From NCBI RefSeq assembly GCF_024223415.1, contig NZ_CP100502.1: a stretch of DNA of 64,000 nt; one strand, given 5' to 3'. The stretch comes from Escherichia coli. Lineage in GTDB: Bacteria > Pseudomonadota > Gammaproteobacteria > Enterobacterales > Enterobacteriaceae. Position numbers and translations under genes: made by a program. Below the pieces are notes generated by a model, which had not been told where the DNA came from, did no database searches, and was given only the letters and a program-made list of their open reading frames with translations. Shown in pieces: positions 30,354 through 32,340 of the stretch (the stretch's first letter is position 1; each line of letters opens with the position of its first letter).

Positions 30354-30505
30354 GACAAAGTCTCCATTTCTGGAATTTAAATCAAACGGAAAGGTTAAAA
30401 ATTTATTTGCAGGCGATAAGAGCTAACCAGAGGAATTAGCCGTGCGATAAAAGGATTGTTGCAGATACGAAAGTCGTTAGAATAGCTGCGGGCGCTTGAG
30501 GCTGT

Positions 30506-30790
30506 ATGCCGAAAGCGTTTTGTGGACGGTATACAGCAGAAAGCCCCTGGAGATTTTTTTATCAATCAACCAAGGGCTCTACTGTAATGCCTAGACAACA
30601 TTATAGTAGCCCGATAACCGCCGTAAGGCAATGGAGGGGCTATGATGCCACAGCGAACGTTTTTAATGATGTTAATCGTCATCTGTGTGACGATTCTGTG
30701 TTTTGTCTGGATGGTGAGGGATTCGCTTTGCGGACTCCGGCTCCAGCAGGGAAACACAGTGCTTGTGGCAACGTTAGCCTACGAAGTTAA
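30506..30790 (+). CDS. pndC: pndC (mok-like) overlapping reading frame
   Basis: seq: ORF overlapping pndA in another frame and ending 7 nt before its stop, as in hok/mok loci. Confidence 0.45.
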   Translation: MPKAFCGRYTAESPWRFFYQSTKGSTVMPRQHYSSPITAVRQWRGYDATANVFNDVNRHLCDDSVFCLDGEGFALRTPAPAGKHSACGNVSLRS

Positions 30791-30797
30791 ACGTTAA
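30645..30797 (+). CDS. pndA: PndA, Hok-family type I toxin
   Basis: seq: 50 aa 'MPQRTFLMMLIVICVTILCFVWMVRDSLCGLRLQQGNTVLVATLAYEVKR' recognised as Hok/PndA; GGAGG RBS 7 nt upstream; below the track cutoff. Confidence 0.85.
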   Translation: MPQRTFLMMLIVICVTILCFVWMVRDSLCGLRLQQGNTVLVATLAYEVKR

Positions 30798-30868: not shown

Positions 30869-31120
30869 TCAATGAAGCGTATCCGGTATTGTTTCATTTT
30901 CCCTGAAGCCGATTAGCTCCAGCCGAATGCCTTTGCCATCGGGGGCCACGTTCTGCATTTCGCAGATACCACGTCGGGTCATGAGTGTGAAGGCTGTCAT
31001 TGCCAGCATGGCTAACGCGTTTTCCTCGCTTCCGCTGCGTTTCTCGAGAGCATCGGCAATTTCTTCTATGCTCCCCACCTGAAAGCAAGAGTCGAATTCT
31101 TTACTCCACTTTTCTGACAT
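30869..31120 (-). CDS. Hypothetical protein
   Basis: seq: 83-aa ORF convergent with pndA; weak RBS. Confidence 0.3.
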   Translation of the reverse strand: MSEKWSKEFDSCFQVGSIEEIADALEKRSGSEENALAMLAMTAFTLMTRRGICEMQNVAPDGKGIRLELIGFRENETIPDTLH

Positions 31121-31263
31121 CGGATTTTCTCTCTGTATTTATGGGTAGTTATCGAACTGAATGTGCCAGTTTTTTCAGGAGACGGCAAAGTTGAGATGAT
31201 TGGTTCTGATTCAGAGCATGAGTTTCCTCGGTGTGACGGGCATGTCGGGCGGATTTTGAGAAA

Positions 31264-31294
31264 CAACAGATGTAAAAAAACCGACTGGTGAGGT
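31264..31294. terminator. Bidirectional Rho-independent terminator
   Basis: seq: 'aaaaaaaccgacTGGTGAGgtcggttttttt', 6-bp stem flanked by an A-run and a T-run. Confidence 0.6.
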
Positions 31295-31336
31295 CGGTTT
31301 TTTTACTGTTCCGTTACAGAGTGGGTGGCCCTGACC

Positions 31337-31360
31337 GGAGGAAATCTCTTTTCAACTAAC
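31337..31360 (+). repeat. 24-bp direct repeat copy 1 (ggaggaaatctcttttcaactaac)
   Basis: seq: repeated at 31524..31547 with one mismatch; followed by TATAAT-like hexamers at 31366 and 31403; its first 10 nt are the reverse complement of 31593..31602. Confidence 0.8.
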
Positions 31361-31523
31361 GTTCTTATAATAGCGAGCTGTTCATTTGATAGCAACCATC
31401 CTTATAATCCGCAGGTTAGCTCTGTCTGGCGACACTTCTGCCGTGATATCCATCGGGACTATGGATGCAAGATTTTAAGTCCTGGCTGAACAAACAGGTG
31501 GTGCTGTGTTCAGTGCTCTGGCA

Positions 31524-31547
31524 GGAGGAAGTCTCTTTTCAACTAAC
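31524..31547 (+). repeat. 24-bp direct repeat copy 2 (ggaggaagtctcttttcaactaac)
   Basis: seq: see copy 1; lies about 70 nt upstream of the small hydrophobic ORF. Confidence 0.8.
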
Positions 31548-31618
31548 ACTGAAAGTGCCGTTGTGACAGGCAATGTAAGAGTAAGCAACGGTGATTTCCT
31601 CCAGTGATGGAGAAGCGG

Positions 31619-31714
31619 ATGATTAATCTGTTAATCATCGTTCTCAGGGCAGTAGTTGCCGTTGCAAACGCGCTGATTGCTGTTCTGGAACTGATCCGGG
31701 AACTTGTCGACTGA
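31619..31714 (+). CDS. Candidate type I toxin-like small hydrophobic peptide (DinQ/TisB-like)
   Basis: seq: 31 aa 'MINLLIIVLRAVVAVANALIAVLELIRELVD', GGAG 6 nt upstream, terminator downstream. infer: resembles DinQ/TisB-type helical toxins from memory. Confidence 0.4.
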   Translation: MINLLIIVLRAVVAVANALIAVLELIRELVD

Positions 31715-31735
31715 TAAGCCTGGAAACGTAACTAA

Positions 31736-31763
31736 GGGCAGGGAGTTACCGCTTCCTGCCCTT
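31736..31763 (+). terminator. Rho-independent terminator after the small peptide ORF
   Basis: seq: 'gggcagg...cctgccc' stem followed by TTT. Confidence 0.5.
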
Positions 31764-31778
31764 TAACAAAAAGAGATC

Positions 31779-31952
31779 TCACGTTAAAAATTTGTACCCT
31801 TCTTTAACTTCCAGTGCCTGCTCCTTTGACTCAAACATCAGTCTTGTTTTCCCGGGAACGCCCCATGAAATGTATTCAACATCTATCCACCATTTTCCAT
31901 ATTCTTTATATGGCCCGGATATTACTTTTTTGACAAAGGCGTCTACCAGATT
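31779..31952 (-). CDS. Hypothetical small protein
   Basis: seq: ATG 31952 with AGGA upstream gives 58 aa 'MNLVDAFVKKVISGPYKEYGKWWIDVEY...' (track ORF from 32063). Confidence 0.3.
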   Translation of the reverse strand, partial: NLVDAFVKKVISGPYKEYGKWWIDVEYISWGVPGKTRLMFESKEQALEVKEGYKFLT

Positions 31953-32340
31953 CATTATTTTTTCCTTTTTGTGTTGAAAATAATTAATGCCAGAGCACAG
32001 CGAAAATAATGAATGCGCTGGCTGTGATAATTGCGATTTTCTCCCATATGATATTTTTCTCATGGGGGTTTCTACGGAGATTATTTCTTCGCATTGAGAT
32101 ACCGGTATTCATGTTTTATCTTGGACTTTTGTTTTGTTGTCTGTCTGGCAGGCTGTTCTGCGCCCGTTTGTGACAAGGTTAGCTTATGGGGTTAAATGGT
32201 CACGGACATCATGCGGACGGTTCCCTGTCACATGCCATCTGTTTTTTTCATTCAAATTGAGAGATATTGCTAAGTTGAGTCGCTTGCGATAGTGGACTCC
32301 TGTTTGTAAGTGAGTGCCATTGTTTATTTCATGAAGAGGA

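Follow-up and report, generated by a model that had tools for sequence, protein, structure and literature searches.

The closest described relatives of the locus considered here, a candidate toxin gene and its regulatory region at positions 31272-31766 of a 64,000-nucleotide stretch of Escherichia coli DNA (contig NZ_CP100502.1; the whole stretch is referred to as the window), are the chromosomal dinQ/agrAB system of E. coli K-12 at the arsR-gor locus (Weel-Sneve 2013, Kristiansen 2016) and the plasmid-borne dqlB/agrB loci. For dinQ, SHAPE (selective 2'-hydroxyl acylation read out by primer extension), in vitro translation and RNase III cleavage have been used to establish that the +1 transcript is inert, with elements 1 and 2 as well as 3 and 4 of its 5' untranslated region (UTR) paired and the hairpin around the Shine-Dalgarno (SD) sequence closed, while in the active +44 transcript element 2 pairs with element 3 and the SD is open (PMC5066626). 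The small RNA (sRNA) AgrB, acting on G88-A119, the segment that holds element 2, returns the SD hairpin to its closed state, prevents translation and directs cleavage by RNase III (PMC5066626). In the same study (Kristiansen 2016; PMC5066626) the dql (dinQ-like) genes were named, split into dqlA and dqlB, and noted to be present on natural enterobacterial plasmids. For plasmid pOXA-48, it was reported in 2025 that dqlB is toxic, that agrB rescues and that killing occurs upon plasmid loss, that the agrB region is essential for maintenance and that supplied agrB saves cells from curing-induced death; dqlB was reported in 67.4% of IncI1 plasmids (PMC12365149). The locus of the IncX3 plasmid pOXA-484 was described in the same year as toxic and plasmid-stabilising (PMC12317039). 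The DinQ/AgrB family is also covered by the database T1TAdb, with predicted antisense RNAs for dql loci.

Plasmid R64 (NC_005014.1) and the window agree at 100% identity. The locus lies between pnd and excA, within the transfer region of IncI1, and is very probably that plasmid's copy of dqlB/agrB, a type I toxin-antitoxin module that makes up the plasmid-borne branch of the dinQ/agrB family of E. coli. A preliminary description of this DNA, made from the letters alone, had proposed a type I toxin locus at this place, and this proposal is borne out: the peptide passes the DqlB model, a cognate agrB gene adjoins, RefSeq uses the name dqlB, and homologues that have been studied by experiment are closely similar. 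The toxin gene had been called unannotated, which holds for older records alone, as RefSeq NC_005014.1 and hundreds of other RefSeq plasmids carry the dqlB annotation; the antisense antitoxin gene agrB had been missed. The R64 copy is an intact and typical member of the named family. Family, mechanism and prevalence in IncI1 plasmids have been published, so that the locus is already known and carries no conceptual novelty, with one side observation, the swapping of recognition cassettes, that may be new.

The 31-codon open reading frame (ORF), its SD sequence and the downstream hairpin are located exactly where the preliminary description had placed them (Table 1). The encoded peptide matches the NCBIfam equivalog model NF041473.1, "DinQ-like type I toxin DqlB", with 67 bits (cutoff 35) from residue 1 to 31 on profile positions 1-31, and the antisense RNA matches its Rfam model; at E = 9e-19 and E = 4e-8, respectively, these matches are far beyond chance, and the family membership of both partners is established. 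With 77% of its residues being A, I, L, M, V or F and a GRAVY (grand average of hydropathy) value of 1.89, DqlB is best explained as a single-helix hydrophobic membrane peptide. It aligns without gaps with other DqlB peptides (24-25 of 31 residues identical); the identity is 25/31 (81%) to DqlB of pOXA-48 and likewise 25/31 to that of a sampled IncX3 representative, p1-Ec-BERN-042, which stood in for pOXA-484 in the peptide comparison. With DinQ, the R64 peptide has an IIVL...LIAxLELIR motif in common. The NCBIfam DinQ model NF041472 reaches 20.7 bits, below its cutoff of 30, and aligns with residues 18-29 alone, and the R64 peptide has 31 residues as opposed to 27 in DinQ. A resemblance to toxins of the DinQ/TisB class had been suggested, of which the DinQ part stands. 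No TisB family was found at E <= 1 in the NCBIfam search of the peptide and no IstR match at E <= 10 in Rfam, and a relationship to TisB was rejected for want of support from either toxin or sRNA.

Conservation of the ORF in related plasmids, a point which the preliminary description had left to be decided, was found: across diverged plasmids the pooled pN/pS is 0.18, the signature of purifying selection. Between R64 and one such plasmid locus (L004), 12 synonymous and 2 nonsynonymous differences were counted, and both alternative frames of the ORF are interrupted by stops. The SD sequence GGAG (31609-31612) is positioned 6 nucleotides (nt) ahead of the ATG, and the block GGAGAAnCGGATG around it is kept in 8 of the 11 loci of our multiple alignment A1, which comprises the chromosomal dinQ locus (L002), R64 and nine diverged plasmid loci; L008, L015 and L016 deviate within or just past GGAG. 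The ORF listing begins the frame at an upstream GTG (31604), which would yield 36 residues. This start was rejected, since both the beginning of the DqlB profile and the SD spacing point to the ATG, and other loci have not conserved the GTG.

Upstream of dqlB, the minus strand contains a complete match to the Rfam model RF02891, AgrB (31359-31272, model positions 1-84), which at 55.3 bits exceeds the gathering score of 40; the chromosomal agrB, used as control, reaches 91.5 bits. The predicted RNA folds into an internal stem and a terminator hairpin, the inverted repeat of which (I2) is 100% complementary. A scan of the intergenic region returned as its sole promoter-like site, by consensus match only, a sigma-70 promoter for this RNA, which predicts a transcription start at about G31360, in agreement with the 5' end of the Rfam match. 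The preliminary description had pointed out two TATAAT hexamers, and both are present (31366-31371 and 31403-31408). The first was rejected as a dqlB promoter and assigned to the other strand, as the agrB -10, because its distance from the AgrB 5' end is 7 nt and a -35 accompanies it at a 17-nt spacing. The agrB gene is divergent from dqlB and does not overlap it, with 55 nt between agrB and the putative dqlB +1, an arrangement of agrB and toxin gene that recurs at chromosomal dinQ and in 12 out of 14 related plasmid loci. A weak plus-strand AgrB match (31211-31306, 20.8 bits) and matches to RNAI and mir-5985 at the locus were rejected, as they are caused by the bidirectional terminator hairpin. 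In one RefSeq record (NZ_CP182389.1), agrB is without an annotation as non-coding RNA despite passing the Rfam gathering threshold, and the toxin coding sequence (CDS) alone is listed. The AgrB gene is also overlain by a sub-threshold match to the Rfam OrzO-P model (31274-31339, minus strand; 33.6 bits, gathering score 60), which stems from a nearly identical terminator hairpin whose loop is CUCACCAG and hints at either a common origin or a convergence of the AgrB and OrzO/OrzP antitoxin sRNAs.

The 5' end of AgrB coincides with the first copy of a direct repeat, the second copy of which lies in the 5' UTR of dqlB. The two 24-bp repeats of the preliminary description exist, with 23 of 24 positions identical, and are the inner part of longer repeats of 33 nt and 88% identity, so that their extent had been understated. 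As deduced from the repeat alignment, AgrB and its UTR target in R64 can form 29 Watson-Crick and 3 G-U pairs with a single mismatch over 33 nt, and the target ends 71 nt ahead of the dqlB ATG. The spacing of the two copies is 187 nt in R64, 188 nt in pOXA-48 and 191 nt in an IncF plasmid. Computing the duplex of whole AgrB with whole mRNA (RNAduplex) gave an over-extended, uninformative structure, and the repeat alignment was used instead. That the three repeat differences are all compatible with wobble pairing was dropped as evidence of selection, since three out of three would arise by chance at about 0.125, which is not significant. The first 20 nt of AgrB vary widely between plasmids (mean 11.9/20 identical), and they agree with the UTR of their own locus at a mean of 17.6/20 and with those of other plasmids at 12.3/20. 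Complementarity is established, and this pattern indicates that the AgrB 5' end and its UTR target co-vary between plasmids. Towards the chromosomal dinQ UTR, R64 AgrB reaches 10/20, and because of this mismatch cross-talk with the system of the host appears unlikely.

The toxin mRNA is predicted by homology. The second TATAAT hexamer is aligned column for column with the dinQ -10, TATGAT, in A1, the dinQ coordinates having been reconstructed on the chromosomal locus from Kristiansen 2016 (PMC5066626), and a GTATAAT-like hexamer is kept in 10 of the 11 loci. A conserved TTATAAC at position 1121 of the dinQ locus was considered as the counterpart of the R64 hexamer and rejected, as the multiple alignment pairs the latter with TATGAT. 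Transcription of dqlB would accordingly begin at G31415, giving a 5' UTR of about 204 nt as compared to 194 nt in dinQ, and with this start repeat copy 1 would lie upstream of the mRNA and form no part of it. The putative terminator hairpin is conserved and homologous to that of dinQ.

Table 1. Features of the dqlB/agrB locus of plasmid R64 (window coordinates).
Feature	Position	Strand	Remarks
agrB antitoxin sRNA gene	31272..31360 (31360 to 31272)	-	about 89 nt; Rfam RF02891
agrB intrinsic terminator	31272..31306	-	14-bp stem, 7-nt loop, T-rich tail; terminator scan
AgrB 5' recognition segment (repeat copy 1)	31328..31360	-	33-nt direct repeat of 31515-31547, 88% identity
Predicted agrB sigma-70 promoter	31367..31395	-	-35 TTGCTA (31395-31390), 17-nt spacer, -10 TATTAT (31372-31367)
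Predicted dqlB -10, TATAAT	31403..31408	+	by homology; -35 weak
Putative dqlB primary transcript	31415..31766	+	about 350 nt; alignment A1 to the mapped dinQ +1
Element 1 candidate (GACACUUCUGCC)	31431..31442	+	predicted partner of element 2 in the full-length inert mRNA
Conserved stem-loop SL2	31485..31514	+	95% of cells paired; compensatory changes in 7/11 pairs, 11 loci
AgrB target (repeat copy 2), includes element 2	31515..31547	+	homologue of the AgrB binding site mapped in dinQ (G88-A119)
Element 2	31520..31533	+	inside repeat copy 2
Conserved stem-loop SL4	31557..31592	+	87% of cells paired; 3 pairs with compensatory changes
Element 3 (GAUUUCCUCCA)	31593..31603	+	predicted partner of element 2 or, alternatively, of the SD
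Element 4, holding the SD (UGGAG)	31608..31612	+	predicted 5-bp hairpin with 31599-31603
dqlB toxin CDS	31619..31714	+	31 aa, MINLLIIVLRAVVAVANALIAVLELIRELVD; NCBIfam DqlB match, RefSeq WP_001303310.1
dqlB terminator hairpin	31734..31763 (31734-31745 / 31752-31763)	+	inverted repeat I4, 12-nt arms, 92% complementary

Counterparts of elements 2, 3 and 4 of the dinQ switch, and a candidate for element 1, can be assigned in the R64 5' UTR, which is homologous to that of dinQ (about 70% over 183 nt), and their predicted duplex energies are comparable: -19.0 kcal/mol in R64 and -21.9 kcal/mol in dinQ for the 1:2 duplex, -17.9 and -17.1 kcal/mol for 2:3, and -7.6 and -7.8 kcal/mol for 3:4. The RNA helices are conserved across the 11 loci. 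The 2:3 duplex is paired in 91.8% of cases, with compensatory changes in 5 of its 10 pairs, as compared to 46-66% in slid controls, while the 3:4 SD hairpin is paired in 94.5% and is nearly invariant, hence gives no covariation signal. For the 1:2 duplex, the mean energy is -19.2 kcal/mol within a locus versus -14.8 kcal/mol across loci; the lock by element 1 is nevertheless the least certain part of the mapping. Element 3 repeats nt 15-24 of AgrB, and this accounts for the exact 10-nt complementarity between the segment 31593-31602 (GATTTCCTCC) and positions 31337-31346 of copy 1; with 31524-31533 in copy 2, the segment forms 9 of 10 complementary pairs and one G-U pair. Judging from this identity, element 3 and AgrB would compete for element 2. 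When the AgrB site was masked in silico, element 3 paired with the SD with a probability of about 0.99 in R64 as well as in the dinQ control, in line with the switch model.

From these features and the published dinQ mechanism, the following course may be proposed for R64. Back-to-back divergent promoters would drive the dqlB mRNA of about 350 nt on the plus strand and the AgrB sRNA of about 89 nt on the minus strand. In the full-length mRNA, element 1 would hold element 2 and leave element 3 free to sequester the SD, rendering the transcript translationally inert, until trimming of the 5' end strips off element 1, whereupon element 2 would capture element 3 and the SD would open. By pairing its first 33 nt with repeat copy 2, including element 2, AgrB would displace element 3 back onto the SD, and the resulting duplex is probably a substrate for RNase III, so that the toxin would remain off as long as the plasmid is present. 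Upon plasmid loss, AgrB is presumed to decay faster than the dqlB mRNA, allowing DqlB to be made and to insert into the inner membrane, by which the plasmid-free cell would be killed or arrested (post-segregational killing). For dqlB/agrB of pOXA-48, an antitoxin RNA less stable than the toxin mRNA and the death of segregants that have lost the plasmid have been shown, and for the IncX3 locus a gain in stability. For the transcript ends, the processing step, the RNA half-lives, the toxicity and the plasmid stabilisation of the R64 copy, we infer this behavior by analogy to dinQ and the plasmid-borne relatives.

Several results weigh against this interpretation. Minimum free energy and ensemble folds of the full-length R64 mRNA did not reproduce the locked state in which 1:2 and 3:4 are both paired, and folding of the trimmed dinQ RNA did not reproduce the open SD that had been observed by SHAPE. 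Since the open state was missed even for the dinQ control, thermodynamic folds were dropped as evidence on the activation step, and because they miss both this state and the R64 1:2 lock, the processing and activation step in R64 is proposed from homology to dinQ. In the generic scan of the intergenic region, the dqlB promoter, the -35 of which is weak, was not called, and neither did the generic terminator scan call the dqlB hairpin, because its U-tract is short. A literature search for experiments on dqlB of R64 or other IncI1 plasmids gave none beyond the prediction of a LexA box and a negative proteome; in that IncI1 proteomic study DqlB was not detected, which is expected of a repressed toxin and is uninformative.

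The LexA box raises the question of whether the R64 copy mainly serves as an SOS-inducible stress toxin like dinQ, repressed by LexA at the motif CTG-N10-CAG at 31482-31497, rather than as an addiction module. The motif does occur, an identical 20-mer in the IncI1 plasmid pTF2 has been predicted as a LexA site at -119 of dqlB with a heterology index of 11.64, and the chromosomal relative dinQ is LexA-regulated. This sole CTG-N10-CAG within 31201-31800 is, however, located in the UTR, about 68 nt downstream of the putative dqlB +1 and not at the promoter. Because it lies inside the transcript and within the covarying stem-loop SL2, the invariant flanks and 7 covarying pairs of which account for its conservation, the latter appears to be better explained by RNA structure than by LexA binding. 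Furthermore, the operator of dinQ overlaps the -10 and has no conserved counterpart in R64, where the dinQ box TACTGTATGATTATCCAGTT aligns to ATCCTTATAATCCGCAGGTT without CTG-N10-CAG; DqlB was unchanged and undetected in SOS proteomics, and the homologues of pOXA-48 and IncX3 work as addiction and stability modules. SOS regulation is unlikely to dominate the control of R64 dqlB, and we regard a role mainly as an SOS toxin as improbable.

The preliminary description had envisaged a different kind of control, namely a long-range pairing within the 5' UTR between copy 1 and the segment 31593-31602 that keeps the mRNA silent. Extended to a full explanation, this would mean regulation in cis only, with a long mRNA that starts upstream of 31337, contains both repeats and is silenced by the 31337-31346:31593-31602 pairing without any antisense RNA. 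The 10-nt complementarity on which it builds is indeed exact and even extends to 18 nt at 83% (I1), but the partner with which the segment covaries is copy 2. Copy 1, in turn, is part of the full-length, above-threshold match to AgrB on the opposite strand, with a promoter and a terminator of its own, and would be upstream of the mRNA start, as the -10 homologous to the mapped dinQ promoter sets the +1 at about 31415; no plus-strand promoter-like site was found by the scan upstream of copy 1. In addition, the corresponding pairing of elements 2 and 3 in the published dinQ model opens the SD instead of closing it, and silencing there is brought about by the hairpin of element 3 with the SD and by AgrB binding. 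Regulation in cis only is thus highly improbable, and we think it slightly less probable still that the locus is an inactive remnant whose ORF is untranslated or whose system has decayed. Degenerate copies do exist elsewhere: in one (L014) the stretch separating the two repeats seems to have been lost and the ORF amounts to 27 aa, and two others (L016 and L009) have altered C-termini. In R64, by contrast, all parts are intact, the peptide is full length with respect to the DqlB model, and the pN/pS of the ORF is low as given above; about 480 plasmid records have an identical regulatory core and about 1,000 an identical CDS.

As compared to the described systems, the R64 module resembles those of pOXA-48 (IncL) and pOXA-484 (IncX3) in that the toxin belongs to the same NCBIfam family and a divergent agrB is positioned upstream of the toxin gene; with pOXA-48, it also has in common a direct repeat with copies about 188 nt apart and a complementarity of about 30-35 nt between AgrB and the 5' UTR. 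In contrast, the recognition sequences are entirely different, and the R64 copy is located between pnd and excA and not between repA and trbC. The IncL/M loci also fail the Rfam AgrB model at E < 0.01, which the R64 locus passes. With dinQ, R64 shares the switch elements 2 to 4, a candidate for element 1 and the AgrB sRNA family; it differs in having one agr gene where dinQ has the pair agrA and agrB, and in being plasmid-borne, with a presumed role in post-segregational killing and not in the DNA-damage response. The systems tisB/istR-1, zorO/orzO and shoB/ohsC, in each of which a long 5' UTR is targeted by an antisense RNA that is divergent and does not overlap, work along the same lines: the primary transcript is inert, processing at the 5' end yields an active form, and the sRNA binds ahead of the ribosome-binding site. 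Their toxin families do not match the R64 locus, and they are to be seen as analogues.

The neighboring pnd module (30490-30797), of the hok/sok family, is likewise a plasmid type I module for post-segregational killing with a small membrane toxin, and the earlier suggestion that a second type I module is located beside pnd is supported. It comprises an Rfam sok match of 134 bits (30490-30647, plus strand) and an ORF for a 51-aa Hok-family toxin (30642-30797, plus strand), which matches the HokA model at E = 3e-19, with a score below the curated cutoff. Toxin and RNA families of the two modules are unrelated. The antisense RNA of hok/sok systems overlaps its mRNA in cis, control being exerted by coupling translation to mok/pndC, whereas the sRNA of dqlB/agrB is divergent and non-overlapping. 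For annotation, it is of relevance that R64 and other IncI1 plasmids harbor two adjoining type I killer modules, pnd and dqlB/agrB, and in practice this matters for curing and stability work on IncI1 resistance plasmids. The locus is flanked upstream by a gene on the minus strand (30869-31120; 83 aa, WP_001291964.1), a conserved hypothetical without NCBIfam match, and downstream by a further conserved hypothetical gene (31779-31955, minus strand; 58 aa, WP_001054904.1), which is convergent with dqlB, ends 16 nt past the dqlB terminator hairpin and travels with dqlB in other I-complex plasmids.

A comparison with other I-complex plasmids revealed a mosaic structure of the locus. Between R64 and an IncI-gamma plasmid (L006, NZ_CP023534.1), the flanks, the 3' half of agrB and the dqlB CDS are 98-100% identical, with 100% for the agrB half and 99-100% for the CDS. 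Identity drops to 44-76% in a core of about 290 nt (31328-31618) that spans the recognition end of AgrB, the two promoters and the 5' UTR. A third type of core occurs together with a 100% identical CDS in L008 (NZ_CP095858.1), L017 (NZ_CP024292.1) and L018 (NZ_CP024146.1), so that there are at least three mutually non-matching core types. In PLSDB, the R64-type CDS and terminator (>= 99% identity) occur in 1,014 records and the R64-type core in about 480, so that this core is missing from about half of the plasmids, roughly 1,000 in number, in which the CDS is of the R64 type.

Two of the loci possess an extra, intact R64-type agrB with promoter (L008, 157-244, with the recognition match at 222-245; L007, 105-192), which is situated upstream of a complete agrB/dqlB unit of other specificity. 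This orphan agrB does not match the UTR of the resident dqlB (19-20/36), and in L008 it is accompanied by the R64-type dqlB promoter and the first approximately 40 nt of the mRNA. Candidate explanations for it are an agrA-like paralogue and an "anti-addiction" antitoxin. It is conceivable, though we consider it rather doubtful at present, that toxin gene and recognition core are separate, exchangeable cassettes among I-complex plasmids, that switching of the core averts mutual neutralisation, and that an orphan agrB allows a newly arriving plasmid to oust a resident of the R64 type while the host survives. The mosaic pattern as such suggests that antisense specificity may be exchanged in modules and that orphan antitoxins might counter addiction. 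No description of a modular exchange of dqlB/agrB antisense specificity was found in the literature, and recognition-cassette swapping and the orphan agrB copies might merit a dedicated study. Finally, in the degenerate locus L014 (NZ_CP141231.1, 545-788), the AgrB repeat directly abuts the downstream UTR, and the ATG follows 73 nt past the repeat, as it does after copy 2 in R64. This arrangement fits a recombination between the direct repeats that would have deleted both promoters; the ORF, cut to 27 aa, is still annotated as dqlB.

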